From a virus (taxonomy: Duplodnaviria > Heunggongvirae > Uroviricota > Caudoviricetes): 64,000 nt of DNA. Both the position numbers and the translations under genes were made by a program. Location of the stretch: IMG/VR virus record IMGVR_UViG_3300037313_001331; one strand, given 5' to 3'. Under the pieces are notes generated by a model. It saw nothing but the letters and a program-made list of their open reading frames with translations. It had not been told where the DNA came from and made no database searches. Numbering within the stretch: position 1 is the stretch's first letter; every line of letters starts with the position of its first letter. Shown piece after piece: positions 6,707 to 63,786 of the stretch.

Positions 6707-7485
6707 TGGCGCTGTTCGACGCGGAACGCTTCATCGGCGGCATTCTCGGGAAGACCGGGTTCGGCGACCGCGGCGAACCCCATCCCTTCGAGGGCAGAGT
6801 GCGAGCACCGGACATGCGCACCGACGGCCCGACGCCGATCTATTCGTACAGCGCGACCCCGGCGGTAGAGGCGGCACTGGCCGCACAGCGCGAAGAAGAG
6901 AAGAAGCGCATCGAGGAATACCAGCGCCGGCGTGAAGAGCAAGAGAAGCAGCAGAGGTCGGCACGGGTGGCCCGCTCGGTCACGATGCGCGAGGTTTTGG
7001 CCTGCTTCCCGAACCAGCTGGCCGACGCGGTGAAGCGTGCCAAGCTCAGTGCTGGAGCTGGCAGCTGGGAATCCGAACGGCGGGAGAACCCGGACTACTT
7101 GGCGGAGCAGATCTTCCACGCCAACTGGCGGCGTGACACCTTCAAGTACCACCAGGCCTACGCGGAATGGGTCGAGCGCAAGGTCAAGACCTGGACAACC
7201 AAAGATGGTGCCGAACTGTTGGCGCACATGGATGCCGTCTACCTCGGCACGCGGCCCGAGACGGAGTTCAATGCGTCGGTGCTGGAAGAAAGTGCGCGAG
7301 AGCTGCGCGAGGCGCGGGCCAAAGAGGACGAGGAGAAGGAACGCCGCCGGGCGGAAGAGCAACGACTGCGCAAGCAAGCGGAGGTCGAGCGCGAAGAGCG
7401 GCGGATCGAGGCCGAGCAGGCTGCCTTTGCGCAGGAGATCGCCGAGCTGGACCGCCTGCGTCAACCCGGTCGAGGTGTGTGGTGA
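6703..7485 (+). CDS. hypothetical charged coiled-coil protein
   Basis: long ORF with E/R/K-rich segments; start overlaps upstream stop. Confidence 0.55.
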   Translation: MMALFDAERFIGGILGKTGFGDRGEPHPFEGRVRAPDMRTDGPTPIYSYSATPAVEAALAAQREEEKKRIEEYQRRREEQEKQQRSARVARSVTMREVLACFPNQLADAVKRAKLSAGAGSWESERRENPDYLAEQIFHANWRRDTFKYHQAYAEWVERKVKTWTTKDGAELLAHMDAVYLGTRPETEFNASVLEESARELREARAKEDEEKERRRAEEQRLRKQAEVEREERRIEAEQAAFAQEIAELDRLRQPGRGVW

Positions 7486-24737: not shown

Positions 24738-25964
24738 ATGCCCCGTCACACCCTCGTCGCCACCACTTTGAAGGCGAAGATCGAAGCCGCACTGGCGGCT
24801 GCCAAGGACTCCCAGAAGGCCCAGAAGCTGGGCGACGGCGACGGGCTGATGCTGGTGGCCCGCCCCAGCGGCGATGCCTCGTGGGTGCTGCGGTACCGCC
24901 AGGATGGTGCACGAAAGGACCTGACCCTGGGCCGGTGGCCAACGCTGACCCTGAAGATGGCGCGGGACGAAGCGGACAAGGCCCGCAAGTCTGCCGCCAC
25001 CGGCGTCGACCCGGTCGAGGCGAAGAAGGCGGCCCGCAAAGCGCGCCCCGGCGTGGCATCGGGCCCGGACACGGTCAGGCGGCTCTTCGAGGACTGGCGG
25101 GCCAAGGAAGAGGTCAGCGCCGTCTACGCCGGCAACATCGAGGCGGCGTTCCTGAAGGACGTGCTGCCTGTCATCGGCGCCGTGCCACCCGAGGACGTGA
25201 CCCGCGAGCAGATCCTGAAAATCCTGCGGACCATCGAAGGCCGGGGCGCCGTCGACATGGTCCGCCGGGTTCGCATGTGGATGCGGCAGATGTTCGAGTT
25301 CGGCATCGAGGACGAGAGCCGCCCTGCCCTGCGCATGTCGCCGGTGCCGATGGGGACGCTGAAGTCCTTCAAGAAGTCACGCAAGAAGCGGCACTACGCG
25401 GCCATCAAGGACGCCAAGGAGGTGCCGGCGCTGATGAAGGCGATCAAGGGCATCACGGACAACTTTGTCATCCGGAACGCCTTCCTGCTGTCGGCGCACA
25501 CGTTCCAGCGGCCGACCGAGATTCGCGAGGCGACCTGGGACGAGTTCGACCTGGACGCAGGCATCTGGCGCATCCCCGCGGAGCGCATGAAGCTGGCCGG
25601 CGAGCACTGGGTGCCGCTGTCGCGCCAGGTGGTGGAGATCCTGCGCGTGCACAAGGGCGTGGTGGGAGATCAGGGCTGGCTGTTCCCGGGCCGGAAGTAC
25701 GGCCAGTCCATCTCCGAGGGCACGCTCACCGGCCGCCTGAACAACATGGGGTTCGAGGGCCGTCACACGCCTCACGGGTTCCGCGCGATGGCGCGGACCA
25801 TCGGTGAAGAGGTCCTGCACATCGACGCCAAGTACCTGGAGAAGCAGCTTTCACACGAGGTCGATGTGAGCGGGCTGCGGGGCGCCTACAACCGGGCGGA
25901 GTACTGGGACCAGCGGGTCAAGATGATGCAGAAGTGGTCGGACTGGCTGGACGCTCAGACATGA
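24738..25964 (+). CDS. int: tyrosine integrase (P4-like, N-terminal arm-binding domain)
   Basis: N-terminus GDGDGLMLVARPSGDASWVLRYR; C-terminal HGFRAMARTIG...RAEYWDQR catalytic region. Confidence 0.85.
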   Translation: MPRHTLVATTLKAKIEAALAAAKDSQKAQKLGDGDGLMLVARPSGDASWVLRYRQDGARKDLTLGRWPTLTLKMARDEADKARKSAATGVDPVEAKKAARKARPGVASGPDTVRRLFEDWRAKEEVSAVYAGNIEAAFLKDVLPVIGAVPPEDVTREQILKILRTIEGRGAVDMVRRVRMWMRQMFEFGIEDESRPALRMSPVPMGTLKSFKKSRKKRHYAAIKDAKEVPALMKAIKGITDNFVIRNAFLLSAHTFQRPTEIREATWDEFDLDAGIWRIPAERMKLAGEHWVPLSRQVVEILRVHKGVVGDQGWLFPGRKYGQSISEGTLTGRLNNMGFEGRHTPHGFRAMARTIGEEVLHIDAKYLEKQLSHEVDVSGLRGAYNRAEYWDQRVKMMQKWSDWLDAQT

Positions 25965-26121: not shown

Positions 26122-26134
26122 GGCTCACAACTCA

Positions 26135-29849: not shown

Positions 29850-30164
29850 TCACCTGTGCTCCTTCGCAGGTTGCCAGCAGTCCTCGCTTGGTATCACTCG
29901 CGCCAAGTCGTCGTAGTAGCTTCCATGTGCGTGCCACAACTCCTCAACAACGTCGTCCCTCACCGTGCCCCAGGTCGTTTGCGAGCGGTGGCGCGCGTGC
30001 ACCTTTGCCCCTTCCGCAAATACACTGACGCCCTCCTCTTTTGAATTGGCACGGGAGTTGTGCGACAGGCTGTAGGAGTCGCGGGAGAGCACGGGACGGA
30101 ACACATAGCCGCCGGCCCGGACATAGAGCCCGTGCTTGTCCTTCTTGACTTTGGTCTTGCTCAC
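29850..30164 (-). CDS. hypothetical protein
   Basis: GTG after AAGGAGCGG; the upstream part of the longer ORF is Arg-rich and probably non-coding. Confidence 0.4.
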   Translation of the reverse strand: MSKTKVKKDKHGLYVRAGGYVFRPVLSRDSYSLSHNSRANSKEEGVSVFAEGAKVHARHRSQTTWGTVRDDVVEELWHAHGSYYDDLARVIPSEDCWQPAKEHR

Positions 30165-30745
30165 TTCCGCTCCTTCGACGTGGTCAGCACGAACGCCTGC
30201 GCCGGCAGCTGGAAGAAGCCGCGGTCGAACTGGCTGAAGAAGCAGGCCATCATCTGGTCCACGTCGTACTCGGCCGCGTGGGCGGCTTCTTTGTCGTAGG
30301 GCACGCCGCATGCGAAGCACAGGGCTTGCAGATTGGGGATCGCCCCGTCCGGGGTCGCCCAGCGCCCTTGCAGCATCGTGTCGATGAGCCGCACGACGGG
30401 CAGCGGGGCACCGATGCGAATGAGTTCGAGGAGCACGAACGGGATGTCGAACCCCTCCCCGTTGTGGACCACCATGTAGTCGCACTTGGACATCAGCAGC
30501 GAGAGCTTCGGCCCGACGGCATCCCACGTCGGGCAGCCGACCAGGTCCTCGAACTTGATGCCGTGCACCGCCTGGGCGTCGGGGTCGATGGAGCGCTCAG
30601 GGTTGATGCGTTGCACGTACTTGCCGATGGGCTCCCGGGAGTCGAGGTCGTACAGCTTCAGTGCCACCTCGATGATGCGGTGGCCCTTGGTCTGGTCCAG
30701 TCCCGTGGTTTCGGTGTCAAAGCCGCCGATGATTCGCCTGGTCAT
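30161..30745 (-). CDS. DnaQ-like 3'-5' exonuclease (DEDDh)
   Basis: Exo motifs GGFDTETTGLD, HNGEGFDIPF, HAAEYDVD; GGAGAAG SD. Confidence 0.8.
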   Translation of the reverse strand: MTRRIIGGFDTETTGLDQTKGHRIIEVALKLYDLDSREPIGKYVQRINPERSIDPDAQAVHGIKFEDLVGCPTWDAVGPKLSLLMSKCDYMVVHNGEGFDIPFVLLELIRIGAPLPVVRLIDTMLQGRWATPDGAIPNLQALCFACGVPYDKEAAHAAEYDVDQMMACFFSQFDRGFFQLPAQAFVLTTSKERK

Positions 30746-31020
30746 TGCGGCTTCTCCGCGAGGCCGCGCCAACGCACCAGACGCCACTTGTCCAGGTTGA
30801 TAGGGGCGTGACTGGAGCGAGCGAGTGCGTCGGCACTCTCCACCCCCTTCGAGCCGTATCGCCACCGCACACCATCGAATCTGTTGAAGAAGGCGTCCAC
30901 AACACCTTCGCCGATCAGCACCCACTCACACTCGTAGATGCCAGGCTCCCAGGGCTGCTGTGGCGGGTCGAACCAGTCACTGCGGTTGACCTGACCGCCG
31001 AGGTAGTAGACGGGCGTCAT
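30742..31020 (-). CDS. hypothetical protein
   Basis: ATGA overlap. Confidence 0.45.
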   Translation of the reverse strand: MTPVYYLGGQVNRSDWFDPPQQPWEPGIYECEWVLIGEGVVDAFFNRFDGVRWRYGSKGVESADALARSSHAPINLDKWRLVRWRGLAEKPQ

Positions 31021-34896: not shown

Positions 34897-35541
34897 TCAC
34901 TGGAGCGTGACAGCTCCTGCGGCCTTTGCCGCCTCCATCAACGCAAGGTGCTCCGAGATCGAGCAATGTGCGGCATGGATCACGGCGCTCACCCGGTCCG
35001 ACAGGTCCAGGTAGGCACGCGGCAGGCGGTAGTGCCGGCATTCCATGCGCTCATCCATCACCAGGCCGATGGCCAGCGCGTTGTAGTGCTCCATGAACGC
35101 CGGGCAGGCGGGCGCCTTGCCCTCCTCTTCCACCAGCGGGATGCCCGGCTGCACCACCACGATGGTTGAGAACCACCGGTTGGCCGCCTGTATGCAGCGC
35201 CCGACGTAGTCCACCACCAGCTGGGCGACCTCGGGGCTGCCCGCGAGCGTGGATCGCTGCACGTCGGCCAGGAGGTACGCGGCCCCGTCCAGGGGCGTGC
35301 GGTCCGAGATGAAGAGCCGGGAGACCTTCGTCGCCGCGGCGAACTGCTTCTCGAATGACTCCAGCAGCGTGTTCTGGACCGCCAGGCGCTCCTCGATGGG
35401 GTACTCCTTCCTGGGGTCCATGCCGCACGCGGCGTAGACGCCCCTGGCGTCGGTCTGCAGGAACGGAATGTCACAGCGCTGCGCGAAAGCCTTCGCCAGC
35501 GTCGACTTGCCCACGCGCTGGGCGCCAAGCAGGCCGATCAT
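34897..35541 (-). CDS. P-loop kinase, putative (d)NMP kinase
   Basis: Walker A GAQRVGKST; GGAGGG SD. Confidence 0.55.
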   Translation of the reverse strand: MIGLLGAQRVGKSTLAKAFAQRCDIPFLQTDARGVYAACGMDPRKEYPIEERLAVQNTLLESFEKQFAAATKVSRLFISDRTPLDGAAYLLADVQRSTLAGSPEVAQLVVDYVGRCIQAANRWFSTIVVVQPGIPLVEEEGKAPACPAFMEHYNALAIGLVMDERMECRHYRLPRAYLDLSDRVSAVIHAAHCSISEHLALMEAAKAAGAVTLQ

Positions 35542-36095
35542 TCGGGCGTGCCCTCCGCCAGCGTCACCACCCCCTCGGGCGCCTGCCTCATCGGGATCGG
35601 CACGATGAGGCCCGGAATCGCCGCGGGTTCGATGAAGCCCTCGCGGTCGCCGTCAGGCGTCTTCACCGCGATGCCGGTCGACCCGAATCCACCCTCGCCG
35701 CGTTCCGTGGACGGCAGCTCATCGACTTCCACGAATTCAGGCAGCACGAACGGCTGGAACATGATCTGGGCGACACGCTCGCCGGCCTGGACGACCTGGT
35801 CTTCCTTGCCGAAGTTGGCCAGGATCACACCGATCTCGCCGCGGTAGTCGCTGTCGATCACGCCCGGGGCGTTCAGCACGATCAGGCCCTTCTTCAAGGA
35901 CAGCCCGCTGCGCGAGCAGATCAGGCCGACATGCCCGTCGGGAATCGCCATCTTCAGGCCGGTCTTGATGAGTTTCCACTCACCCGGCGCGATGGTCTCG
36001 TCGTGGTCCGTGCACAGATCCACGGCTGCAGCTCCACGCGTCGCCGCGAAGGGAATGTTGGCCTGCGGGTGCACGCGCTGAGTTTGAACTTGCAC
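35538..36095 (-). CDS. dut: dUTP diphosphatase
   Basis: dUTPase motifs AAGVDL, GVIDSDYRGE, RGEGGFGSTG; GTG after AGGAGAGG. Confidence 0.85.
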   Translation of the reverse strand: MQVQTQRVHPQANIPFAATRGAAAVDLCTDHDETIAPGEWKLIKTGLKMAIPDGHVGLICSRSGLSLKKGLIVLNAPGVIDSDYRGEIGVILANFGKEDQVVQAGERVAQIMFQPFVLPEFVEVDELPSTERGEGGFGSTGIAVKTPDGDREGFIEPAAIPGLIVPIPMRQAPEGVVTLAEGTPE

Positions 36096-36498: not shown

Positions 36499-37422
36499 TC
36501 ACGCAACAAGGTGAGAGCTGCTGACCTCAGCCTCCACCTGATGACGGAATTGCAGCCAGCCCCGGAAGTTGCGGGACTGGAACTGCTTGAATGCGGCGGC
36601 GAATGCCTGGTGTTCCACCGGCGACGCATGCAGCGGCGTCGAGCCCACCAGGCGCTCGTACAGCGCAAGGTCCTTCTCGATGCTCGGGCGTTCGCCGTCG
36701 TGCGTCAGGTACGAGACCCGGGCACAGCGGGCAGCGCTGATTTTGGCGAGCAAGCGCGGGTTGCTGGGGTACAGCTCGCGCTCTTCCGGGAGCACGTAGG
36801 GCAGATGCCAGCCCTTCTCGGTCTCCCAGTCGGCATGCCGGCGCTGCACCGGCTCTGAGCCCGCCATGGCCTTGTTCATGGCCTGGGCCAGGGCGCGGAT
36901 CTCGGGCTGGGCATCGGCATGGTCACGCAGGGCGAAGAAGTTGTCCCAGTCCGTCGCCGTCACGATGACGCTGATGTACTGGAACGGCTCCAGAATGCGG
37001 TTGACCACCTGCTTGTGGTAGCCGGCCGCCGACATGGCTTCTGCGACTTCGGCCGCCCGCCGGGCTGCTTCGCGCCAGGCATCCTGCACCGACATGCTGG
37101 TGCGCTCGAAGGTGAACAACGGGCAGTCCGACGGGTTGTCGTGCTCGATGGCCTCCTCCAGAAGTACAGGCGCGGTGCCCTCTTCCGCCGCCTGCATGCC
37201 GGGCTGGTTCAGCCCCCAGTGCACAGGCATGGCCGGATCGTTGCGCACCTGGTCCAGCATCTTGGCCACCGGGATCGCACGGGAGCTGCTGGCGTTGCGG
37301 CTGAAGACGCGGTGGGTCATGAACTCCGCGTGGATGAAGCGCTGGTAGCGCAGCTGGAGGGTGATCAGCTCAACGCCGTTGTCGGCGACCGAGTGCTCGA
37401 TGACTTTTGCTGTTGCGGTCAT
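36499..37422 (-). CDS. thyX: flavin-dependent thymidylate synthase
   Basis: ThyX signature THRVFSRNASSSRAIP (RHRX7S type). Confidence 0.85.
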   Translation of the reverse strand: MTATAKVIEHSVADNGVELITLQLRYQRFIHAEFMTHRVFSRNASSSRAIPVAKMLDQVRNDPAMPVHWGLNQPGMQAAEEGTAPVLLEEAIEHDNPSDCPLFTFERTSMSVQDAWREAARRAAEVAEAMSAAGYHKQVVNRILEPFQYISVIVTATDWDNFFALRDHADAQPEIRALAQAMNKAMAGSEPVQRRHADWETEKGWHLPYVLPEERELYPSNPRLLAKISAARCARVSYLTHDGERPSIEKDLALYERLVGSTPLHASPVEHQAFAAAFKQFQSRNFRGWLQFRHQVEAEVSSSHLVA

Positions 37423-40286: not shown

Positions 40287-42554
40287 CTACGCGACCTTGC
40301 TGAAGGAGTAGTCGATGGGGCACGCGCCGGCAGAGCAGTCCAGGTGCTCGAAGCCGATGTCCTGGCTGATCGAGTCATCCTTGATGGCAGCCAGGATCTC
40401 CTGGAAGCGCTCACGGCTGACCGGCTCTTCGGGCTGGTACTCGTAGGCGGTCGTGTCTGCCTGGGGCATCACGGAGCAGCACTTGATCGTCGACTGGCCG
40501 TCCAGCAGCGTCTGCCGGAAGTGCGGATAGTTCACGGTCTTCGGGTCGTACTTCAGCGTGTAGGAGACCTGGTTGCCGAAGTCGTGCTTCTCGCCGGTGG
40601 TGTCGTCGTAGCCGTCGATCCACCACTTCTCCATCAGCTGCAGGAACTTGTACTGCTCTTCGGGCGTCGCCTCGGCCGCGGTCACCAGCGCGTCGCCCAT
40701 GCCCAGTGTGACGATCTCGGGGACGGTTGGGAAGCCCACGATGGTCGTTCCGCTGTACTGCTTCAGCTCGCGCACCGGGTAGCCCTTGGCGCGGTACTGC
40801 TCGATCAGCGGGTCATCGTTGCGGAACTGCACCCAGCGCAGGTACTCACGCATCGACGGAAGGTGCGCGCCCTCGGTGAGGCCGAACAGCTTGCTCGTGG
40901 TGCCGGCGGGCTTCATCGTCGTCACGGTGTGCGGCATGGCCACGCCCAGCTTCTCGCTGTAGCGGCGGGCTTCGTCGACGCAGGCCCGGCTGAAGCGGCC
41001 CAGCGTGCGCCACATCTTGATGGACTTGTGCTCGTTGACGATGTCCTTCCAGCCGAAGCCGAAGCGAGCCCAGATCCACTCATGCAGGCCAGTGATACCC
41101 ACGCCGATGCGGTTCGTGCGGCGAACTTCCTTGCCGTAGAGGCAGTCCATCGTGTTGACGCGAATCAGCGCCCGGGTGGCAGTGCGGAATGCGTCCTCGG
41201 CGTCACGGTCCCAGGCAGTGGCCGTCTCTTCGTCGGCGAAGTTGAAACCACGGATGTAGGAGGCGGCGTGATACGGCACCACGTCCGCGATGACGCAGTA
41301 GCCACCCAGCATGCCCAGGCTGATCTCGCCGCACGGGTTGGTGATCTGAGTGAACTCCTTCTTCGCGAAGATGGCCGCCAGCTCGGCCGTCATGTGCTTC
41401 GTCTCGGGGTCCAGCTTCATCCGCTCGGACTCGGCGTAGTCACCATCGAACAGCGCGGCGATGCCGTCCTGCTTCTGGGTCAGGCGCTCCACATTGATCA
41501 GGCCAGGCTCACCGGTGCCATCGTGGTAGCTGGCGCTGCAGACGGCCTCGTAGACCTGCTTGGCGTGCAGGGCAAACAGCAGCGTGCCTTGCGACTCGAA
41601 AGCAAGGTCATCTTGACCAGCGCGCACCAGCTTCCAGAACTCCTCGTCCACGGTGACGGAGTTGTTCGAGGACCAGAGCACCCCGCCCTTCTTGACCGAA
41701 ACGAAGTCGGCGATGTTGGCGTCACGCCAGGTCTTGGTGGCCATGCGAGCGGCCCGGCGGGCACCACCCACCAACACGCACTCGGCCAGGTAGTGGTCGG
41801 CGTACATGGTGGCCTTCCAGGGCTCCATGCCGCTGCCCTTCAGCTGGGCGATCTTGGTGATGGCGTCCATGAGCGGCGCCGGCCCGGAGGCGGGACGACC
41901 CTGCATGCCCATGATGGGGGCACCACGGTGGCGCACGCCGCTGAAGTCGAGGATCAGGACGTGGTTGGACCAGCGGCGCTCCCAGGTCATGCGCTCGATC
42001 TGCTCCACTGCCTTGGCCCAGCCCTCGCGGCTGTCGGGCACCTCGTAGACGACCTGGGGGAAGCCGACGAAGGTGTGGGGCGTGACGTAGTCGGTGCTGA
42101 CGTACCCGTCGCGCACGTCCGGGTGGTCGCCGCGAATCACACACTGCACGAACGGCATGTCGCGCGACCAGTTGACGACCATCATGTCGTCGTCGTAGGC
42201 GCGGCCGACGCCTGAGCCATTCAGCAGAAGGTAGAACAGCAGGAAGCTCGACGCGGCGGTCGAGCAGTTGGTGAAGACCTCCTGATTGCGGCTGGGCTGG
42301 TTCTCGTCGCCGTGCTGGAGGTGACGACCCGACATCAGCAGCGAAGCCTGTCGCAGGTGATGGTGCAGCGGCTCGAACTCGAAGCCGGCAGTCTCGGGGT
42401 GGAGGGACGAGTTGCCGATGGCAACCCGCAGGGCTACGTCGCTCCACACTTCGACGCTGCCGTCGGACTTCTTGCGGTTGATGGTACGGTCTGCGACTGC
42501 TTCGCCGATGCCGGAGGCGTAGCTGCGCGCTGGTGTGGACCAGCTGGAATTCAT
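40287..42554 (-). CDS. ribonucleotide reductase, class II-like
   Basis: 755 aa; TNCSTAASSF, LLLNGSGVG and NPCGEISL active-site motifs; AAGGAG SD. Confidence 0.85.
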   Translation of the reverse strand: MNSSWSTPARSYASGIGEAVADRTINRKKSDGSVEVWSDVALRVAIGNSSLHPETAGFEFEPLHHHLRQASLLMSGRHLQHGDENQPSRNQEVFTNCSTAASSFLLFYLLLNGSGVGRAYDDDMMVVNWSRDMPFVQCVIRGDHPDVRDGYVSTDYVTPHTFVGFPQVVYEVPDSREGWAKAVEQIERMTWERRWSNHVLILDFSGVRHRGAPIMGMQGRPASGPAPLMDAITKIAQLKGSGMEPWKATMYADHYLAECVLVGGARRAARMATKTWRDANIADFVSVKKGGVLWSSNNSVTVDEEFWKLVRAGQDDLAFESQGTLLFALHAKQVYEAVCSASYHDGTGEPGLINVERLTQKQDGIAALFDGDYAESERMKLDPETKHMTAELAAIFAKKEFTQITNPCGEISLGMLGGYCVIADVVPYHAASYIRGFNFADEETATAWDRDAEDAFRTATRALIRVNTMDCLYGKEVRRTNRIGVGITGLHEWIWARFGFGWKDIVNEHKSIKMWRTLGRFSRACVDEARRYSEKLGVAMPHTVTTMKPAGTTSKLFGLTEGAHLPSMREYLRWVQFRNDDPLIEQYRAKGYPVRELKQYSGTTIVGFPTVPEIVTLGMGDALVTAAEATPEEQYKFLQLMEKWWIDGYDDTTGEKHDFGNQVSYTLKYDPKTVNYPHFRQTLLDGQSTIKCCSVMPQADTTAYEYQPEEPVSRERFQEILAAIKDDSISQDIGFEHLDCSAGACPIDYSFSKVA

Positions 42555-50815: not shown

Positions 50816-50825
50816 TGCAACCCTT

Positions 50826-50851
50826 CCCAAAAATTGCCCCGCTTGCGGGGC
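50826..50851 (-). terminator. intrinsic terminator
   Basis: minus strand CCCCGC-aa-GCGGGG followed by CAATTTTTGGG, between a TATAAT box and the sbcD-like SD. Confidence 0.5.
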
Positions 50852-50859
50852 TTCAATCA

Positions 50860-50885
50860 ATTATAGAGAGTTAGTCAGTGATGAC
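50860..50885 (-). promoter_or_regulatory. class A box plus TATAAT
   Basis: minus strand GTCATCACTGACTAACTCTCTATAAT; the box spans the SleB-like stop codon. Confidence 0.45.
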
Positions 50886-56117: not shown

Positions 56118-57062
56118 TCAGCCGAGTTGGCTCAGCAGTTCGTCCAGGTCCGGGTCACCGGTGGGCTCGCCCGCCGTCGTCGCGGCTGCGGGAGCCGCCG
56201 CGGGCTTGGCCGCTGCCTTCGCGGGCAGATCCGGCACGTCGGTGATCTCCTCGTCCAGCTTCTTGGCAGCTGCAGCGGGCTTCGCGGCCGGCTTGCGCGG
56301 TGCAGCGACGGCGTAGTCGTCGTCGACCAGCTCGGCGGCACCAGCTGCGGCCTCGGGCAGGCCCGAGGGGCGAGCACCGGCTGCGGCCGGAGCTGCCAGC
56401 AGACCGGCAACGGAACGCACCGAGTTCAGGGCGCGCTGTTGTTGCTCGACCGACTCCTGCTGCACGTAGGCGTCCAGGTCGTGGAGCTTGGTGAGCACGT
56501 CCGGCGACACGGCGCTCGCCTTCGCGGCCAGCATGGTCTGGTACTTGGTGTTCTTGCCCGTGCCTTCGCGGGTGATGATGATGTCCGAACCCGGATTGCC
56601 GTCGCCCATGATGATGGACTCGCCGGCTTCTTCGTACTCGGTGGCGATGCCCAGCACCTGCTCGAACACCGTGGGCGCCAGCTCCAGGATCTGGACCTCG
56701 CCGGGGGTCGGGCCATCCAGCTGCACCGCGTTCAACAGCACGCGGCCGGCGGACTTGGCTTCCTTCAGCAGCTCCATCGTGGCGTCGTCGGTCGCGCCCT
56801 TGATGGCGCTCTGCACCGCGTCGCACACGGGGCAGGGACGACCGAAGGTCTTGTCCGTGCAGACGTAGATCGCGGCGATGGTGTTGTCGGCGTTCTTGAC
56901 GAAGTGCTGACCGAAGTCGTGCCAGAACTGCTGGCCGGCGCCACGCCAGGACTGGAGGATGCGCCAGCGACTGCGACCTGCGGCCGGCTTGACGGTCTTG
57001 CGACGCTTGCCGGAGGCCAGGTCTTGCTTCTTGTTCTTCAGGAGTTCGAGCAATGCGGACAT
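56118..57062 (-). CDS. putative ssDNA-binding protein
   Basis: position in the replication block, Cys cluster CTDKTFGRPCPVCD, Ala/Pro-rich linker and acidic tail DPDLDELLSQLG; inference only. Confidence 0.4.
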   Translation of the reverse strand: MSALLELLKNKKQDLASGKRRKTVKPAAGRSRWRILQSWRGAGQQFWHDFGQHFVKNADNTIAAIYVCTDKTFGRPCPVCDAVQSAIKGATDDATMELLKEAKSAGRVLLNAVQLDGPTPGEVQILELAPTVFEQVLGIATEYEEAGESIIMGDGNPGSDIIITREGTGKNTKYQTMLAAKASAVSPDVLTKLHDLDAYVQQESVEQQQRALNSVRSVAGLLAAPAAAGARPSGLPEAAAGAAELVDDDYAVAAPRKPAAKPAAAAKKLDEEITDVPDLPAKAAAKPAAAPAAATTAGEPTGDPDLDELLSQLG

Positions 57063-57112
57063 GTAGTTTCCCTTGTTGGTTTGGTTGGGTGAAGAGCGGT
57101 TTGACCCGCCCT

Positions 57113-57139
57113 CACATTATAGTGTGTGTCAGTGGTGAC
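57113..57139 (-). promoter_or_regulatory. class A box plus TATAAT
   Basis: minus strand GTCACCACTGACACACACTATAATGTGAGG upstream of the SSB-like gene. Confidence 0.5.
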
Positions 57140-57142
57140 TGA

Positions 57143-57652
57143 CTATTCGGACGACTTCGCAGCGCCGCCAGACATCGCGTCCAGCATCCGCTCGCGATTG
57201 GCCTGGTTGACAGCGACCCGCAGGCCACCCTCCTTCTCCTTCGCTGCGTCCCGGGCGATCTGCAGGAGCATGTCCTTGCGGTGCTCGAAGGATCGCTCAG
57301 CGACTTCGGCCAGGCGGTATTCCTGCTGAGCGTCGATCAGCTGCGCGTAGGCGCGACGGTACCGGGCGTCCAGCACCAGCGCGGCACGAATCTGCCCCTC
57401 GGTGGTCTTGGGGTTTTCTTCCTTCAGCTTCAGACGGTATTCGCCATCCAGCTTGCCTTCGAGGATCTCGACCGCCACCTTGTACCGCTCGTACTGGCGC
57501 TTCGCCCGCACGGTCCGCGTGGCGTAGAACACGTACAGCGCGGAGTGCTGCGCCATGTTCCCGCTCAGGTCGGTCAGGTCGATGGAAATGTCCTTCTTCA
57601 GCTGCTCCGGGTCGACGTATGCCGTCATCGCGGTTTCTGCGGCTTCGCTCAT
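57143..57652 (-). CDS. hypothetical protein
   Basis: AGGAGAG SD; ATGA overlap with the dnaE stop. Confidence 0.5.
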   Translation of the reverse strand: MSEAAETAMTAYVDPEQLKKDISIDLTDLSGNMAQHSALYVFYATRTVRAKRQYERYKVAVEILEGKLDGEYRLKLKEENPKTTEGQIRAALVLDARYRRAYAQLIDAQQEYRLAEVAERSFEHRKDMLLQIARDAAKEKEGGLRVAVNQANRERMLDAMSGGAAKSSE

Positions 57653-60600
57653 GTCAGTAGCTCTCCTAGTTTCTCGAACGTGTTCTCGATCAGCCGGACC
57701 TTCGAGGGGTCATGGAAGACTGATCCGGGGTGAATGCCGAAGATGACGGTTGCATCCAGGTCGGCGCGATAGATGACCTTGCCGGCCAGGTCCGCCGGCG
57801 TGCCCTTGATGCCCGGCGCGAACCAGCGCACCGCGTTGCTGCCCATCGCGATGATGATGGGCGGCTTCAGAATCTCGATCTCCTGCTCCAGGTACTTGGA
57901 GCATCCGATGATCTGCTCGTTGGTCAGGGCCTTCTGCTCTTTCGGCTTCGACACCTTCACCAGCGACGTGTAGTAGCCGTCGGAGGCCCGGAGGCCCACG
58001 TCCTTCAGAGCCGCCTTCACCGCTTCGGAGGCCTTGCCTTCCAGCATCTTGCCGGCGCGCTCCTCTTCCCAGCTGGGTGTGTCGAACACCATCATGAACC
58101 GCGGCTTGTCGCCCATGCGCGGCAGCGGGTGCGGCTTGCCCTTGAGCGAGCACCCCTCACATGCGCGGGCCTCCTCGACCAGGCGGGTGATCTTGATCTT
58201 GGCCAAGTGCTCCGCATTCAGCTCGCGGTCGGGGCGCACCATTTCGACGGTGAAGCCCGGCACCAGTGCAATGCGGTCTTTCAACCGGTCGGGGTGCGTC
58301 GCGGGCTTGCCCTCACCGGTGATCGAGTGGAGTGCCCCGACCTTCTCCAGGTTCTCCAGGTGCTTGCTGTTGACGGCGGTCCGCCCCAGCACCTCCTTCT
58401 GGGTCTCCTGGTCCAGCCCGCGGATGTGCGCCGGCACCTCCACGATCTTCACCTTGGTCTTGAGCGGCACTTCCTTCGTGCTCACCGGCACCCAGGTGAA
58501 TCTGCCGCCCACGTGGGCGCGCAGCTTCTCGATGGCAGCGGCCACGCCCGAGCTGATGCCCTTGATGGCCTGCAGGGGCGCGTACAGCTTGTCCTCGCCC
58601 TCGATCTCAACCCGGGCGCTCGAACGGTTCAGGTCAGGCGGCAGGACCTGCAGCTTCTTCCCCTGGGCATCAAGCACCAGGCCCGCCAGCTTCTCGTCCT
58701 TGTCGACCACCGTCATCGCCGCGGCGAAGAATTCGGCGGGGTAGTACACCTTCAGCCACATCGTCACCCAGCTGATGAGCGAGTACTCGTAGGAGTGCGA
58801 CTTGTTGAAGGAGTATGCCGCGTAGCCCTCGATGGAGGTCCACAGCGACTCGGCCTTGTGCTCTTCCCATTCGGAGTGGTCGACGCAGCCCTTGATGAAC
58901 TTGTCCTTGAACTCGGCCATCTTCTCGGCGTCCTTCTTGCCGATGGCCTTTCGCACACCGTCTGCTTCGCCCGGCGTGAAGCCCGCGAGCACCCGGCAGA
59001 CCTGCATCACCTGCTCCTGGTACGCCATCACCCCGTAGGTTTCAGACAGCACCGGCTCCAGCTTCGGGTGGTCGTAGTACGGCCGCGTGGCTCCCTGCTT
59101 CACCTGGACGTAGCGGTCACAGAGGCCGGCGTCCAGCGGGCCCGGCCGGAAGAGCGCGGTTGCGGCGCAGATGTCGTCGAACGTGAGCGGCCCGCCCAGT
59201 GCCAGCTGCTTCAGCAGGTTCTTCATGCCGCCGCCCTCGAACTGGAACACGCCGGTGGTGTCGCCCTTCGCGAATGCCTCCAGCACCCGCTTGTCGTCAA
59301 GCGGCAGGGAAAGCATGTCGATGGTCTTGTGGTGACGCTCGCGGATGTACTCCAGCGCCGTCTCGACCATGTCCAGAGTGCTGAGGCCCAGAATGTCGAT
59401 CTTGATCAGGCCAAAGTCCTCGACCTTGGTCTTGTCCCACTGCACGATCGGCAGGGTGCTGCCATCCTTGTCACCGCGGGTGGACACCACGGCCCGGTTC
59501 ACCACCGGCTCGCCGGCGACGACCACGCCCGCGGCGTGTTGCGACAGCGAGCGGTTGGCGCCCTCCAGGCGCAGCGCATAGTCCCACAGGATCGGCCGCT
59601 CGTTCTTGAACTTCTCGATGTCGGGCACGCGTTCGGCGGACTCGGTCAGGCTCAGCGAGACACCGTGCTCCTTTTCCATCTGCTTCGAGCAGGCGTACTC
59701 CCATGGATCCAGGTCATGCAGGCGCGCGGTGTCGCGCAGCGCCGACGCCGGGCCCAGAGTGGAGAAGTTGACGATGCCGGCAACGCGGTCGTGCCCCCAC
59801 TTGTTGCGGATGTAGTCGATGACCATGTGGCGCTTGCCGGACATGAAGTCGAGGTCGGCGTCGGGAAGGTCCACGCGGTCGGGGTTGATGAAGCGCTCGA
59901 ACAGCAGGCCGAAACGGATGGGGTCGATGTCAGTGATGCCCATCAGGTAGGCGACCAGAGACCCGCCCACGGAGCCGCGCCCGGGGCCGACGCGCACGCC
60001 GTTTTCCTTGCTCCAGTTGACGATGTCCTGCACCAGCAGGAAGTAGCCGCTGAAGCCCATCTTCTTCAGGACGCCCAGCTCGAATGCCAGGCGCTCCCGG
60101 TACGGTCCGTCCAGGTCCTCGCGGCTCGGGGCGTGGCCCCAGACCTCGCGACCGAAGCGTTTGCCCCAGCCGGCCTTCACTGCGGCCAGCAGCGCGGTGA
60201 ACTCGTCGTCAGCCATCTTGGGCATGGTCGGCTGCAGCTTCTTGAAGACGAAGCTGCAGCCGGCCGGGATCAGCTTGGCGTTCTCGACCAGCGAGAGCAC
60301 CCGACCGCTGCCAACCTGGTCGCGCAGCTTCTTGCACTCCTCCACCATGTCCTTCGCTGACAGCAGGCACATGTTGCGCACGTAGGGGCGCGGCAGAAAG
60401 ATCGAATGGGCGGACGTGTTGCTGCTGATGGCGCGCAGCACGTCGGTGGCATTCGCGTCCTCGGGCGTGGCGTAGAACGCCGGCCGAGTGACGATCATGG
60501 TCTGCAGGTAGGCGTCGCCCACCTCGAACGCCTTGCGGTTCAGACGGTTGAACAGCGGCGTGTCCAGCGCCACCAGCTCGATGATGTAGTCGCGGCCGAA

Positions 60601-61074
60601 CCGGGCGGACAGCTGCGCGCTGATCGAGGTGGCGTCCTCGCGGTGCCACAGGTTGTAGATGTCGCCGGTCGTGACGATCACGTCCTCCAGCGCCAGCACG
60701 TCGGCCAGACCCAGGCGGGCGTGGTAGTAGTAGTGCTCGGGCGTGAGCGACTTCGTGAGGGCCGCGAACAGACTCTGCATGCCCTTGTCGGACTTCACGT
60801 AGACCTTCAGGCGGTAGCCGCCGTTCTCGCGGTCCTTGAGCTTCGCCGTCGGATCGTCCACCACCTGGATGGTGCACCCGACAATGGGCGTGATGCCGGC
60901 CTTCTTGCATTTCTCGGCGAAGAACGGCATCGACGCGACGCTCATGTAGTCCGCGAGCGCGATGTGCGTGTAGCCCAGCTCCTTCGCGCGGTCGACGATC
61001 TTGCCGACCTGGAAGCTGGACTCGCCCAGCGAGAAGTCGGAGCGAACCGACAGTGCGATCTGCAGCGGATTCAA
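57649..61074 (-). CDS. dnaE: DNA polymerase III alpha (DnaE) fused to a C-terminal family-4 UDG-like domain
   Basis: PHP domain and palm GPGRGSVGGSLVAYLMGITDIDP; C-terminal ~190 aa with GIHPGSV (HPS-like) motif; TTG start after GGAGAAG, overlapping upstream TGA (TTGA). Confidence 0.85.
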   Translation of the reverse strand: MNPLQIALSVRSDFSLGESSFQVGKIVDRAKELGYTHIALADYMSVASMPFFAEKCKKAGITPIVGCTIQVVDDPTAKLKDRENGGYRLKVYVKSDKGMQSLFAALTKSLTPEHYYYHARLGLADVLALEDVIVTTGDIYNLWHREDATSISAQLSARFGRDYIIELVALDTPLFNRLNRKAFEVGDAYLQTMIVTRPAFYATPEDANATDVLRAISSNTSAHSIFLPRPYVRNMCLLSAKDMVEECKKLRDQVGSGRVLSLVENAKLIPAGCSFVFKKLQPTMPKMADDEFTALLAAVKAGWGKRFGREVWGHAPSREDLDGPYRERLAFELGVLKKMGFSGYFLLVQDIVNWSKENGVRVGPGRGSVGGSLVAYLMGITDIDPIRFGLLFERFINPDRVDLPDADLDFMSGKRHMVIDYIRNKWGHDRVAGIVNFSTLGPASALRDTARLHDLDPWEYACSKQMEKEHGVSLSLTESAERVPDIEKFKNERPILWDYALRLEGANRSLSQHAAGVVVAGEPVVNRAVVSTRGDKDGSTLPIVQWDKTKVEDFGLIKIDILGLSTLDMVETALEYIRERHHKTIDMLSLPLDDKRVLEAFAKGDTTGVFQFEGGGMKNLLKQLALGGPLTFDDICAATALFRPGPLDAGLCDRYVQVKQGATRPYYDHPKLEPVLSETYGVMAYQEQVMQVCRVLAGFTPGEADGVRKAIGKKDAEKMAEFKDKFIKGCVDHSEWEEHKAESLWTSIEGYAAYSFNKSHSYEYSLISWVTMWLKVYYPAEFFAAAMTVVDKDEKLAGLVLDAQGKKLQVLPPDLNRSSARVEIEGEDKLYAPLQAIKGISSGVAAAIEKLRAHVGGRFTWVPVSTKEVPLKTKVKIVEVPAHIRGLDQETQKEVLGRTAVNSKHLENLEKVGALHSITGEGKPATHPDRLKDRIALVPGFTVEMVRPDRELNAEHLAKIKITRLVEEARACEGCSLKGKPHPLPRMGDKPRFMMVFDTPSWEEERAGKMLEGKASEAVKAALKDVGLRASDGYYTSLVKVSKPKEQKALTNEQIIGCSKYLEQEIEILKPPIIIAMGSNAVRWFAPGIKGTPADLAGKVIYRADLDATVIFGIHPGSVFHDPSKVRLIENTFEKLGELLT

Positions 61075-61280
61075 GGCGTCTTCTCCAGCGGCACGACGAC
61101 ACCCTTGAAGATGTCCGCGTACTTCACCGCGCTGCCGATTGACATCGGCACACTGAACCGAGGTGGAATGCAGTCGTCGTAGCGAACGCGTGCTTTTGGC
61201 CACCAGTGAGGCTCGTGCCCGCGGAGACCGTTGTGACAAAAGAAACCCATTCGCCCGAGAAGAAGCCAGATCTTGAACAT
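61071..61280 (-). CDS. small ORF translationally coupled to dnaE
   Basis: ATG 5 nt after class A box plus ACACA; no SD. Confidence 0.35.
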   Translation of the reverse strand: MFKIWLLLGRMGFFCHNGLRGHEPHWWPKARVRYDDCIPPRFSVPMSIGSAVKYADIFKGVVVPLEKTP

Positions 61281-61285
61281 TGTGT

Positions 61286-61297
61286 GTCAGTGGTGAC
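61286..61297. promoter_or_regulatory. class A box
   Basis: minus strand GTCACCACTGACACACA directly followed by ATG 61280. Confidence 0.5.
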
Positions 61298-61306
61298 TGA
61301 GTCTTT

Positions 61307-61912
61307 TCATGATAGTGCCCGCGTGGGGTTGGATGTGAAATGCAACGCCCCATTCAGCTCACAAACCAGTTGCCCGGCGAGGAAGATCGCCACCGCATCG
61401 GAGACCTTCACCTTGGCGCTACTGGGCGCCATGCCCAGCTCTGCCTGGAAGGCGAATGCCAAGCGCGCTCGGGACCATCCGCCCTCCAGCAGGGCCCGCA
61501 CCATGATGTGTCGCCAGCCCTTCGCCGCGGGGTTTCGGCCCGCCTGCATTTCCGCACGCACGTGGTCGAACCAGCCACACTCGAAGCCCCGACGGATCTG
61601 ACTCTGCACGCGCTTGGGCGCGGCGTCGATCACCTGCTGTTCGCCCGCGGTGATGCTGACGCGCGTGACGCCCCGGGTGCTCGCCGTGATCGTTCTGTCG
61701 GGGACCTCCCCACCCTGCTTCGCTGGCGAACCCTGCAGCAGCTTCGCTGCGAGCACAAGGTCCTGGCGTGCACGACGCACGCCAGCTTCATCGGGAAGCT
61801 TCGCCAGCACCCGACGTGCAACCGACACGCACGCCGCCGAGTGCGAACAGGCGCCACACGTTGTCGATGTGGCGCTGACGTAGACCGGAGAACCGTAGCA
61901 GGTGGGCGTCAA
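61307..61912 (-). CDS. Cys-rich protein coupled to the sigma factor (candidate anti-sigma)
   Basis: TTG start overlapping the sigma stop (TTGA); CYG...TTCGACSHSAAC cluster; function inferred from context only. Confidence 0.4.
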   Translation of the reverse strand: MTPTCYGSPVYVSATSTTCGACSHSAACVSVARRVLAKLPDEAGVRRARQDLVLAAKLLQGSPAKQGGEVPDRTITASTRGVTRVSITAGEQQVIDAAPKRVQSQIRRGFECGWFDHVRAEMQAGRNPAAKGWRHIMVRALLEGGWSRARLAFAFQAELGMAPSSAKVKVSDAVAIFLAGQLVCELNGALHFTSNPTRALS

Positions 61913-62592
61913 GCGGCTTTGTCCGAGAGCGTCTTGCGCAGGCCTCCGATGGGTGCCCACTGCACGTCGAACTTGGCGAGGATCTCGCGCTTGACCTGGC
62001 GCAGCTCTTCGCCAGCCAGACCGATCTCGGTACACAGCTCGCGAAGCTTGCGGCCACCGGTGCCGCGCTCCTTCTCGTCGAGCATCAGTGCCGTCACCAG
62101 GCGGCGAGCGCCCGGGGACAAGGATGCCAGGCGCTCACGCACGGCATCGCGGTGGTCGAGGCGGTCCTCTTCGGAATCATCCATCTGGTCGCCGGCCAGC
62201 AGCTCCAACGGGTCGCCCTCCGCCTCTGCGCCCACGACTTCCTCGTAGCTGACCAGGCCCAGCTCGGCACGCTCCTTCTCGGGCTTCTCGATGTAGGCGT
62301 TGAAGAAGCGCCACGCGACGGTCTGACAGTAGCTGGAGAAGTAGGTGCCGCGGTCGGCGGACCAGCTGCGAGCCGCCTGGACGTAGCCCAGGTTCAGCAC
62401 GCTCATGCAGTCGTCCAGCTCCATGCCCAGCCCCATGGCCTCCACCCGCCGGAATGCCTTGATGGCCATGCCCTTCAACATGCCCTGGACGGACTCGTAG
62501 GAGCCATCGTTCGCGTAGCGCTTGTTCTTCTCCTCCCGAACGCGAGTGGTGCGCGGCTTCAGGACAACGACGGTGGGGGAAACTGCTTGCAT
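61909..62592 (-). CDS. sigma-70-family RNA polymerase sigma factor
   Basis: region-2-like RGTYFSSYCQTVAWRFFNAYI and region-4 HTH LRELCTEIGLAGEELRQVKREILAKF; AAGGA SD. Confidence 0.7.
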   Translation of the reverse strand: MQAVSPTVVVLKPRTTRVREEKNKRYANDGSYESVQGMLKGMAIKAFRRVEAMGLGMELDDCMSVLNLGYVQAARSWSADRGTYFSSYCQTVAWRFFNAYIEKPEKERAELGLVSYEEVVGAEAEGDPLELLAGDQMDDSEEDRLDHRDAVRERLASLSPGARRLVTALMLDEKERGTGGRKLRELCTEIGLAGEELRQVKREILAKFDVQWAPIGGLRKTLSDKAA

Positions 62593-62616: not shown

Positions 62617-63786
62617 TTACTTGCCGAAAACGCGCTTGGCGACCTGGTCCGCGACTTCGCGGTCCACCGTCGACAGACGGTTGATGAAGGCCTTCTGCAG
62701 GCCCAGGTGGTAGTTGTTGTGGGCGTACCCGTACATGCCAGCGTTGATCAGCGAACGCGGCGAGATCGGGTTGGACAGCTTGGACGAGTCGAACTCCTGG
62801 CGCACTCGGGTGGCAAAGTCGACGAGCAGCTTCGCGTCCTCGGGCGGGATGTCCGACTGCAGGGCGACCAGTCGCTCCTCCAGCGCCTTCTCCATGTAGG
62901 GCATCTTCTCGACGATGCCGAAGCGCTCGAAGTTGGCGGCGTTCTGGATCGTGGTGCCCTGGTACAGGCCGGTCTCATCGCCCTGCCCGTTCGTGTTGCC
63001 CGTTGCGACGATGCGGAAGTCCGGATGCGGCTTCACGACCCGCATCGAGGTGTCAGCTTCCTTGATGAACAGCGGCTTGCCTTCCAGCACCGCCTGGTAC
63101 ACGGCGAGCACCTCCGGGCGCCCGAAGTCGTACTCGTCGGCGATGTACAGCCACCCGTACTTCATCGCCATGGGCAACGGCCCGTACTCGAAGAACGTGT
63201 GACCATCGCGCAGACGCCACCCGCCGACGATGTGCTCCTCTTCCATGTTGGCGGTGTGCTGCACACGCACGGTGGGGCGTCGCGTGCGTGCCGCGACCTG
63301 CTCGAAGATGGTGGTCTTGCCGGTACCCGAGTGACCCCAGAGGAACGTCGGGATGTTCATCTCCAGCCCGAACATCAGCGACTTGAGCACGTCCAGGTTG
63401 AAGACGTAGTTGGGGTCGACTGCCGGCACCATGTCGGAGAACTCGGGCGTGTCCGGCATGACGGAGATTTTGATCGGCTCGCCCTTGCTGCTGAGCGCCG
63501 CCTTGACCTTGCCCAGGCCGAAGACTTCGTGGAAGTTTTTCTTCATGGACGTGGCCACCGGGGTGGAAGATGTGTCAGTACTGACTGAGCTTGCAAGCGC
63601 TCGCTTTTCCAGCTCTGCCTTTGCGATGTCGCTCAGCAGCGGCGCACCGGGAAACTCCTTCTCGTAGTCCTTGAGGGTGTACCCCTCGGCGGCGTGGTCC
63701 TTCGCGATGTGCAGCTGAATCGAGTGGACCTTTGCGCCACACTTCATGCACTTGATCTTGGTGTCTTCCGTGGTGCCCTTGCTCAT
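62617..63786 (-). CDS. AAA+ ATPase (MoxR/CobS-like) with N-terminal zinc ribbon
   Basis: Walker A LWGHSGTGKTT, Walker B LYIADEYD, N-terminal CMKCGAKVH; ATG after GGAGGA. Confidence 0.8.
   Translation of the reverse strand: MSKGTTEDTKIKCMKCGAKVHSIQLHIAKDHAAEGYTLKDYEKEFPGAPLLSDIAKAELEKRALASSVSTDTSSTPVATSMKKNFHEVFGLGKVKAALSSKGEPIKISVMPDTPEFSDMVPAVDPNYVFNLDVLKSLMFGLEMNIPTFLWGHSGTGKTTIFEQVAARTRRPTVRVQHTANMEEEHIVGGWRLRDGHTFFEYGPLPMAMKYGWLYIADEYDFGRPEVLAVYQAVLEGKPLFIKEADTSMRVVKPHPDFRIVATGNTNGQGDETGLYQGTTIQNAANFERFGIVEKMPYMEKALEERLVALQSDIPPEDAKLLVDFATRVRQEFDSSKLSNPISPRSLINAGMYGYAHNNYHLGLQKAFINRLSTVDREVADQVAKRVFGK
63574..63585. promoter_or_regulatory. class A box inside the AAA+ ATPase CDS
   Basis: GTCAGTACTGAC within codons for SSVSTDTS, about 30 nt before an in-frame Met. 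Confidence 0.4.

Follow-up and report, generated by a model that had tools for sequence, protein, structure and literature searches.

The polymerase gene described here lies in a 64,000-nucleotide (nt) stretch of DNA (henceforth, the window) from a virus of the class Caudoviricetes (IMG/VR record IMGVR_UViG_3300037313_001331). The gene, which we refer to as dnaE-UDG, occupies positions 57649–61074 and encodes a C-family (DnaE-type) DNA polymerase of 1141 amino acids (aa); it opens with a TTG codon (61074–61072), closes with a TGA stop codon (57651–57649), and is contained in an uninterrupted open frame that spans 57649–61353. Positions are those of the window, and features lie on its minus strand except where noted. 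The enzyme is the replicative polymerase of its phage, a temperate virus of siphovirus type that is uncultivated, measures about 111 kb, and belongs to the SSU5/RHEph10/nickie group. An earlier reading of the bare sequence (the original prediction) had described an open reading frame (ORF) of about 1140 aa with a PHP domain, DnaE palm motifs, and a family-4 uracil-DNA glycosylase (UDG)-like domain fused to its C terminus, and all of these features were recovered in the present analysis.

Pfam matches to the 1141-aa protein delineate a PHP domain at aa 9–139 (PF02811, E 2.5e-16; 60658–61050), a DNA_pol3_alpha domain at aa 318–563 (PF07733, E 1e-75), a finger domain at aa 566–733 (PF17657, E 9e-55), and an HHH_6 domain at aa 808–859 (PF14579, E 5.8e-10). 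The Pol3 palm/NTPase and finger regions together take up aa 318–733 (58876–60123), and the HHH_6 match represents the Pfam-matched part of the (HhH)2 domain (58498–58653). Two palm motifs with the catalytic Asp residues can be read directly from the sequence: PDADLDF (aa 404–410; 59865–59845) and KIDILGL (aa 558–564; 59403–59383). By eye, a second HhH-like element, NSKHLENLEKVGALHSI, appears to follow an insertion downstream of the Pfam-matched HhH. Thus, the protein has a palm with catalytic Asp, a PHP domain, fingers, and (HhH)2, as is expected of a DnaE-type enzyme, and its polymerase core is intact. The first metal-binding HxH motif of the PHP domain is degenerate (SVRSDFS), and the PHP domain is therefore probably not an exonuclease.

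A UDG fold replaces the OB and tau-binding domains

The C-terminal domain of the polymerase (aa ~964–1141) maps to 57652–58185, in keeping with the interval of about 57649–58220 given in the original prediction, and stands where the OB and tau-binding regions would be expected. It was matched by PF03167 over aa 990–1125 with an E value of 1.6e-11 in the context of the full protein and of 7.7e-13 when the C-terminal 217 aa were used alone, and its score of 49.2 bits, as compared with a gathering threshold of 24.3, places it in the UDG superfamily. The nearest NCBIfam models were TIGR00758 and the archaeal type-4 UDG model NF040953 (E 3e-18 for each), although the curated family-4 cut-offs were missed by far (66.1 versus 125.3 bits and 65.8 versus 250 bits, respectively). 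Among PDB sequences, the best phmmer match was the family-4 UDG of S. tokodaii (4zbx, E 2e-14), followed by those of T. maritima (TM0511) and T. thermophilus (1ui0) and then by UdgX.

Structure prediction led to the same assignment. An AlphaFold2 model of aa 860–1141, built from a nine-sequence alignment, had pLDDT values of ~80–90 for an alpha/beta UDG domain and poor values for the linker. When the model was compared with the PDB using Foldseek, the top matches were all family-4 UDGs (from Thermotoga, Thermus, and Sulfolobus; TMt 0.79–0.83, E ~1e-11), below which came UdgX and then, weakly, the UDG-like domain from the family-A polymerase of phiLo (9qhs), MUG, and TDG. The identity of the domain with family-4 enzymes of known structure (1ui0; 1vk2/1l9g; 4zbx) is 22–25% at a TMt of ~0.8, and the positions of motifs A and B, the CxxC, and the last cluster Cys can be recognized in it.

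The domain has taken the place of the usual C-terminal regions rather than having been added to them. The DnaE model PRK05673 aligned with the polymerase over profile positions 7–853 of 1146 only, with a score of 736 bits against a cut-off of 1002; NF004226 likewise matched at profile positions 7–853 (E 7.5e-221). Because the PRK05673 alignment ends at position 853, the beta-binding, OB, and tau-binding part of the model is without a counterpart. No Pfam match to an OB fold was found in the 1141-aa protein, and no OB-like beta barrel was seen in the model of aa 860–1141. Thus, the C terminus did not align with the canonical OB/tau region, and the original prediction, which had named such an alignment as fatal to its claim, stands. 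Where cellular DnaE1 has its OB fold and tau-binding C-terminal domain (CTD), the window polymerase has a domain with the family-4 UDG fold. In comparison with E. coli Pol III alpha, the PHP, palm, finger, and HhH regions are homologous, whereas the OB domain and tau-binding CTD are missing. The OB domain of Pol III alpha touches the single-stranded template, and the CTD of cellular DnaE1 mediates tau binding. At least 97% of C-family polymerases have an OB domain (PMC3919608).

The architecture itself is already known. The original prediction had implied that UDG fusions were a property of family-A polymerases and that a fusion to DnaE was new, but DnaE proteins in which an archaeal-type UDG (PF03167) replaces the OB domain and CTD were reported for Yersinia and Salmonella elements by Timinskas et al. 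(2014) (PMC3919608), and tblastn revealed full-length homologs (at least 80% of the protein covered, 37–42% identity) in at least 35 phage records. These come from Rhizobium phages (RHEph10, V1VFA-S, B1VFA, and RHph_*), Stenotrophomonas phages (ANB28 and BUCTxx99), Pseudomonas phages (nickie, hairong, and phiK7B1), and SSU5-like phage-plasmids of Salmonella, Klebsiella, and E. coli. The GenBank entry for RHEph10 gp048 already lists it as "uracil-DNA glycosylase-like," and phrog_4335 matched the window polymerase over aa 736–1139 (E 1e-105). In metagenomes, about 115 clusters at 50% identity carry the DnaE-UDG family. When 1.84 billion cluster representatives were searched exhaustively by phmmer with the C-terminal 217 aa, 56 matches had E<1e-30. 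As far as about E 5e-17 the domain was C-terminal in nearly all of the matched proteins, and weaker matches were to standalone UDGs of ~180–250 aa. Among 149 further matches listed, 41 were longer than 1000 aa.

The closest described system is the DnaEX variant of extrachromosomal elements in Yersinia pestis and Salmonella enterica, the polymerase of SSU5-like phage-plasmids, which, like the window polymerase, consists of PHP-Pol3-(HhH)2 followed by PF03167 in place of the OB domain and CTD; SSU5 gp052 aligned over 99% of the length at 36.6% identity. The gene order CobT–CobS–sigma-like–hypothetical–dnaE–hypothetical–gp32-like single-stranded DNA-binding protein (SSB)–FEN–RecA is conserved, and the window shares CobT–CobS–...–dnaE–hypothetical–gp32-like SSB–FEN with SSU5-like elements. 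DnaE-UDG is thus the replicase of widespread temperate phages and phage-plasmids of ~100–120 kb, among them the SSU5-type elements of Salmonella, Klebsiella, and E. coli. The window copy is a divergent addition to this group, being from a metagenome and only 37–42% identical to the polymerases of isolated phages, and it differs further in having His, not Asn, in motif B. At the DNA level no close relative was found in phages, with megablast of the locus giving five fragments of 6–9%, all from Rhizobium phages; the locus is identical to a 110,897-bp JGI metagenome contig and to other contigs of the same phage. The worth of the window copy is confirmatory; what is added to earlier knowledge is small and consists of the census of residues, the co-variation behind a Cys3-His set, and the motif in the linker, all presented below.

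Could the fusion be an artifact, either an assembly chimera or a stop codon or frameshift overlooked ahead of a separate UDG gene? Such a view could point to the short fragments that make up about half of the related cluster representatives, but we consider it virtually excluded and have rejected it. The ORF is continuous, with a uniform GC content at third codon positions (GC3) of 0.91; the same DNA is present in nine contigs, and the four loci that were compared are identical where they overlap; and the same architecture recurs in 41 full-length representatives and 35 records of isolated phages. Moreover, an HNH endonuclease ORF, which interrupts dnaE upstream of the HhH and leaves the UDG-like domain joined to the HhH, accounts for the short fragments.

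This split could be followed in the related metagenomic phages L004 (4781–9044 of its sequence), L005, and L006 (2782–7158), in each of which dnaE is present as two ORFs with an HNH_3 homing-endonuclease ORF between them. The first ORF (780–791 aa) carries PHP, palm, and fingers, and the second, which was called at 347–355 aa but starts some 36 codons further upstream, comprises HhH and the UDG-like domain. C-terminal pieces of this kind (~380–420 aa) make up about half of the cluster representatives. No group I intron was found by Rfam in the insertion that splits dnaE of L004, and the split gene corresponds either to a two-subunit polymerase or to an unrecognized intron.

[quoted passage not shown]

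In family-4 enzymes, the Glu of motif A, GE(A/G)PG, activates water, the Asn of T-N-x-V (N91) and the His (H178) of motif B, HPS(S/A)(L/V)(L/V)R, form hydrogen bonds with uracil, and the Arg of motif B binds substrate (PMC10359453). We compared 102 domains of the fused family with 29 standalone family-4 UDGs, all obtained from one search, at each of these positions. The counterpart of motif A in the window copy is VFDTPS (aa 996–1001; 58072–58089), where family-4 UDGs have V-G-E-[AG]-P-G. The fused family conforms to [VI]-x-D-x-P-[NST], with Asp (Asp998 in the window copy) in 95 members and Glu in three, as against Glu in 24 of the 29 standalone enzymes. The segment YYTSLVKVS (aa 1034–1042; 57949–57975) corresponds to Y-I-T-N-x-V-K-C of family-4 UDGs. 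Here the uracil-binding Asn, which is present in 24 of 29 standalone enzymes, is found in none of the 102 fused domains, which instead have Ala, Ser, Thr, or Gly (Ser1037 in the window copy), and the third Cys of the Fe-S cluster, again present in 24 of 29, is likewise absent throughout the fused family (Val1041). The Phe of P-F-V-G, which we take to be the stacking residue, shows the same pattern, being present in 24 of 29 standalone UDGs and replaced in the fused family by L, G, M, A, or T (Leu, in GKMLEG, in the window copy).

Motif B is represented by GIHPGSVFH (aa 1113–1121; 57712–57738). The GIHPGSV sequence to which the original prediction had drawn attention as an HPS-type motif is therefore present (aa 1113–1119), but its His is not a feature of the family. 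Whereas 27 of 29 standalone enzymes have His at this position, the fused domains have Asn (63), Ser (22), Thr (11), Gly (3), or His (2), such that Asn, Ser, or Thr has replaced it in 96 of 102. The window copy (His1115) is one of the two His members, and even a relative that is 74% identical to the window polymerase has GINPGS. The Arg at the end of motif B, found in 12 of 29 standalone UDGs, is Phe in 62 of 102 fused domains and His1121 in the window copy. Highly conserved in the fused family, in the numbering of the window copy, are Asp998, Tyr1034, Thr1036, Lys1040, Gly1113, and Pro1116.

Judged by these alignments, the fused domains form a distinct and widespread clade, marked by systematic replacement of the residues to which family-4 enzymes owe their uracil glycosylase activity. 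Among the catalytic residues whose retention the original prediction had put in question, the window copy keeps His1115 and has undergone replacement of Glu by Asp998, Asn by Ser1037, Phe by Leu, and Arg by His1121. It also lacks the full set of four Cys residues of family-4 UDGs, and every uracil-specific feature except the motif B His has been replaced. Family-4 UDGs, moreover, stand alone, whereas the window domain is fused. Nor does the domain qualify as a UdgX, whose signature is the motif A sequence GEQPG and an R-loop, KRRIH, with a cross-linking His (PMC10359453): the window copy has FDTPS, shows no KRRIH-like loop after TSLVK (VSKPKEQKALTNEQ), and scored 47.7 bits against a cut-off of 190 with TIGR03914.

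Two further features set the family apart. About half of its members, the window copy included, retain the first, second, and fourth Cys of the canonical cluster; in the window copy these are the two Cys of CEGC (aa 972–975; 58161–58150) and Cys1058 (57903–57901, within GCSKYL at 57889–57906). A His lies six residues past the CxxC in 43 of the 45 three-Cys members, as compared with two of 27 four-Cys standalone UDGs; it is His982 in the window copy (58131–58129), and the CEGC and His together span 58120–58161. The other half of the family, to which RHEph10 and SSU5 belong, has lost all of the ligands, unlike the window copy and its close relatives. This co-variation suggests that C972, C975, C1058, and H982 form a putative Cys3-His metal site that replaces the four-Cys 4Fe-4S site. 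The other feature is a linker motif just ahead of the UDG-like domain, RLKDRIALVPGF in the window copy (aa 930–941; 58252–58287), with the consensus R-x-[KR]-D-Q-x-E-L-[LM]-P-G-L. The Gln is present in 85 of the 94 members that have a residue at that position, whereas Arg takes its place in the window phage and its nearest relatives (DRIALVPGF). The motif resembles beta-clamp-binding motifs (QL[SD]LF; QADMF of E. coli alpha) and lies in a similar place, after the HhH; the E. coli motif is 920-QADMF-924 (as cited in PMC3201878). The linker is a candidate clamp-binding-like motif that has become degenerate in the window phage.

Proposed role of the domain

UDG-superfamily domains have been recruited to phage replicative polymerases before. 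The PolA-UDG fusions (SPO1-like, SP15/YerA41/phiLo-like, N4-like, and T5) likewise contain such a domain, but in these the polymerase is of family A and the domain N-terminal, whereas in the window polymerase, a family-C enzyme, it is C-terminal. The match of the window domain to phrog_17 (E 5e-9) was weaker than that to family 4, which suggests that the fusion arose independently of PolA-UDG. In vaccinia virus, too, a UDG subunit is associated with the replicative polymerase, as D4-A20-E9 (PMC3201878), and bridges the polymerase and A20. The poxvirus D4/E4 protein has a UDG fold that is positioned on the template strand (bioRxiv 10.1101/2025.03.26.645540, where the Mpox complex is mentioned); it is, however, a separate subunit, an active UDG of family-1 type that works with a family-B polymerase, and its kinship with the window domain is at the superfamily level only.

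On balance, and with only modest confidence, we favor the view that the fused domain is a non-catalytic DNA-handling module that stands in for the OB domain. According to this proposal, the UDG-like domain would no longer be a canonical uracil glycosylase and would have taken over the role of the OB domain in holding template or duplex DNA near the polymerase, thereby contributing to processivity or template tracking. Proofreading would probably be carried out in trans, given a PHP domain without its first HxH and the presence in the phage of a gene for a DnaQ-like exonuclease (30161–30925; RNase_T in Pfam, E 2e-18; phrog_192, "DNA polymerase exonuclease subunit," E 3e-47). A DNA-handling function matches the proposal that the UDG domains of SPO1 and T5 PolA are processivity factors (PMC3201878) as well as what is known of the N4-like PolA domains, which are without catalytic residues, and of the poxvirus UDG subunit on its template strand (bioRxiv 10.1101/2025.03.26.645540). 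If correct, it would show that a C-family polymerase can work without an OB fold and without tau. Certain considerations weigh against the proposal, however. The loss of glycosylase activity in the fused clade is a prediction from residues. In addition, the pocket is conserved (Asp998 in 95 of 102 members; the Tyr, Thr, and Lys of Y-x-T-x-x-x-K; and the Gly and Pro of motif B) to an extent that exceeds the needs of a purely structural scaffold and that would fit a remodeled active or binding pocket. Finally, the window copy has both an acidic motif A residue and the motif B His, the minimal pair of active family-4 and family-1 enzymes.

These same observations are what would be expected if the C-terminal domain were instead an active glycosylase with a remodeled pocket, one that scans the template ahead of the polymerase and removes uracil or some other aberrant or modified base. 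There is a precedent in the SP15-like PolA-UDG fusions, the UDG domains of which are experimentally active and excise dU at a distance of ~5 nt in front of the active site (bioRxiv 10.1101/2025.03.26.645540), and the phage invests in keeping dUTP low and in making dTMP, as judged by its genes for a dUTPase (35538–36095) and a ThyX-type thymidylate synthase (36499–37422). We nevertheless regard an active enzyme as unlikely. The universal loss of the Asn and the stacking Phe argues against uracil as the target, the motif B His is absent from 98% of the family, and the intercalating Arg is absent as well; the domain scores far below the curated family-4 cut-offs; and no AP (apurinic/apyrimidinic) endonuclease, PolX, or ligase was seen among the ~35 ORFs of the window that were scanned, which represent part of the genome. 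A related and rather improbable possibility is that the pocket has been re-engineered to sense bases, such that the domain would read the template ahead of the C-family replicase and stall at, or excise, a base other than uracil, such as a bulky or modified one. This idea takes its cue from the near-invariant Asp, the small residues at the former Asn and Phe positions, and the Cys3-His site in half of the family; if true, it would represent the first "read-ahead" sensor of damage or modification within a bacterial-type replicative polymerase. Base sensing or excision of either kind would link replication and base surveillance in a bacterial-type replicase, as in some family-A phage polymerases and in poxviruses. 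It is also rather improbable, in our estimation, that the domain is mainly a protein-docking module that replaces the tau-binding CTD and recruits a partner such as the helicase/primase, the gp32-like SSB, the DnaQ-like subunit, or the host clamp. It does occupy the position of the CTD, the poxvirus UDG subunit offers a precedent as a bridge to a polymerase, and most family members have the conserved Q-x-E-L-[LM] motif just upstream, but it is in the motifs of the canonical nucleotide-binding pocket, and not on a new surface, that the conserved residues lie, and the linker Gln has been lost in the window phage. Thus, a DNA-handling stand-in for the OB domain is the role to which we would provisionally assign the domain.

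The dnaE start and its surroundings

The dnaE frame contains five candidate start codons: ATG 61353, TTG 61239, GTG 61203, TTG 61074, and ATG 60945, the last of which lies inside the PHP domain. The original prediction was right in choosing the TTG that follows GGAGAAG; it overstated the case in calling it the only in-frame start consistent with the PHP domain, there being three others upstream, in a stretch that is noncoding in that frame. Thus, for the 279 nt upstream of 61074, read in the dnaE frame, GC3 was 0.44 and the codon log-odds score –0.97 per codon, as compared with 0.91 and +0.99 for the gene. Conservation among homologs begins right after the TTG, with (M)NPLQIALSVRSDFSLGESSFQ in the window and MTTPNPLQVALSVRSDFSLGESSFQ in L006, and the N termini of the RHEph10, nickie, SSU5, and L004 proteins fall within a few residues of the window start. 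The JGI and Logan gene calls, which are independent, yielded the same 1141-aa product. Together with the Shine–Dalgarno-like GGAGAAG (61080–61086; 5-nt spacer), these codon statistics, N termini, and gene calls provide good support for initiation at TTG 61074 from a ribosome-binding site of its own.

Just upstream is a 69-aa ORF (61071–61280), the TGA of which (61073–61071) overlaps the dnaE TTG in a 4-nt TTGA. Whether it is coding is uncertain. It is possible, if doubtful, that the ORF represents a true small gene or a leader peptide and that initiation of dnaE at its weak TTG is both coupled to and controlled by translation of the ORF. Of the coupling put forward in the original prediction, the ORF and the overlap are indeed there, but the coupling itself is unproven. 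It can be said in favor of coupling that the JGI and Logan gene callers also called the ORF and that its frame shows significant periodicity (GC1/2/3 of 0.58/0.43/0.72; p ~0.001 for 3-base periodicity versus shuffles), which is strongest in the last 23 codons (GC3 0.87). Unrelated small ORFs also overlap the dnaE start in relatives (RHEph10 gp047, SSU5_051, and an 89-aa ORF in L004), which points to a variable slot. Weighing on the other side, the ORF is an orphan, the only match in 5.8 billion proteins being itself and those in 50,697 phage records (E<=10) being due to chance; its codon score was 0.04, as compared with 0.8–1.0 for neighboring genes; and no Shine–Dalgarno sequence precedes its ATG. 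Furthermore, dnaE in L006, the closest relative with context, has no 69-aa ORF and starts with ATG after a 20-nt spacer, and the window dnaE has a good Shine–Dalgarno sequence of its own. Coupling would in any case be possible only if the ORF were translated.

The position of the ATG of the 69-aa ORF, 5 nt past a repeated sequence box, also bears on this question. The box, GACTCAGTCACCACTGAC, had been noted at this place in the original prediction (as a class A box), and it is truly repeated: five matches with no more than three mismatches, all on the minus strand, were found in the window, where 0.1 was expected. The copy at 61286–61303 ends 5 nt before the ATG. Two other copies carry a TATAAT –10 element at the corresponding position: the box at 57145–57116 forms part of a sigma-70-like promoter (TAGTCA-18 nt-TATAAT, 10 of 12 matches) ahead of the gene for the gp32-like SSB, and the box at 50891–50874 is followed by TATAAT. 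The box is probably a phage promoter or operator. In the copy at 61303–61286, the ATG of the 69-aa ORF sits where the –10 element would be expected, and so, if this copy were a promoter, the transcript would not contain that ATG.

In the form TCAGTCA-NN-ACTGA(C), the box contains overlapping short inverted repeats and is intergenic and almost always on the gene-coding strand. Its 5′ ends are at 63588, 61300, 57142, 50888, 10089, 9349, and 3619 on the minus strand and at 26132 on the plus strand, and it is also found in L004, a 59%-identical relative, at ~7131–7144, upstream of an HNH gene. A GC-rich hairpin with a T-run, gaagCCCCGCaagcGGGGCaattttt (50820–50875), follows the box and TATAAT at 50891–50860; lying between the genes for a cell-wall hydrolase and an SbcD-like protein, it has the appearance of an intrinsic terminator or attenuator. 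Around dnaE (56900–62100) no Rfam RNA families were detected, and terminator-like sites were no commoner at the locus than in shuffled sequences.

The dnaE stop overlaps the ATG of the next gene (ATGA, 57649–57652). This gene (57143–57652; 169 aa; phrog_1069 and phrog_2058, function unassigned) also follows dnaE in RHEph10, L004, and L006. Upstream of dnaE are two conserved genes (61307–62035 and 61909–62592), one of which encodes a sigma-70 region-2-like protein (phrog_351) and the other a Cys-rich protein (phrog_3616) with homologs in RHEph10 gp046 and, by eye, in the N terminus of SSU5_051. Because the 242-aa ORF, as listed, overlaps the sigma-like gene, its true start probably lies further downstream.

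Finally, in addition to the dUTPase and ThyX genes, the window contains a gene for a class II (B12-dependent) ribonucleotide reductase (40287–42554), and the ORFs scanned included none for a hydroxymethylase or for base modification. This equipment for making dTMP and removing dUTP argues for ordinary thymine DNA, low in uracil. A gene on the plus strand (24738–25964) encodes a tyrosine integrase with Arm-DNA-bind_3, Phage_int_M, and Phage_integrase domains, from which it would appear that the phage is probably temperate and integrating, unlike its SSU5-like relatives with their plasmid-prophage lifestyle.

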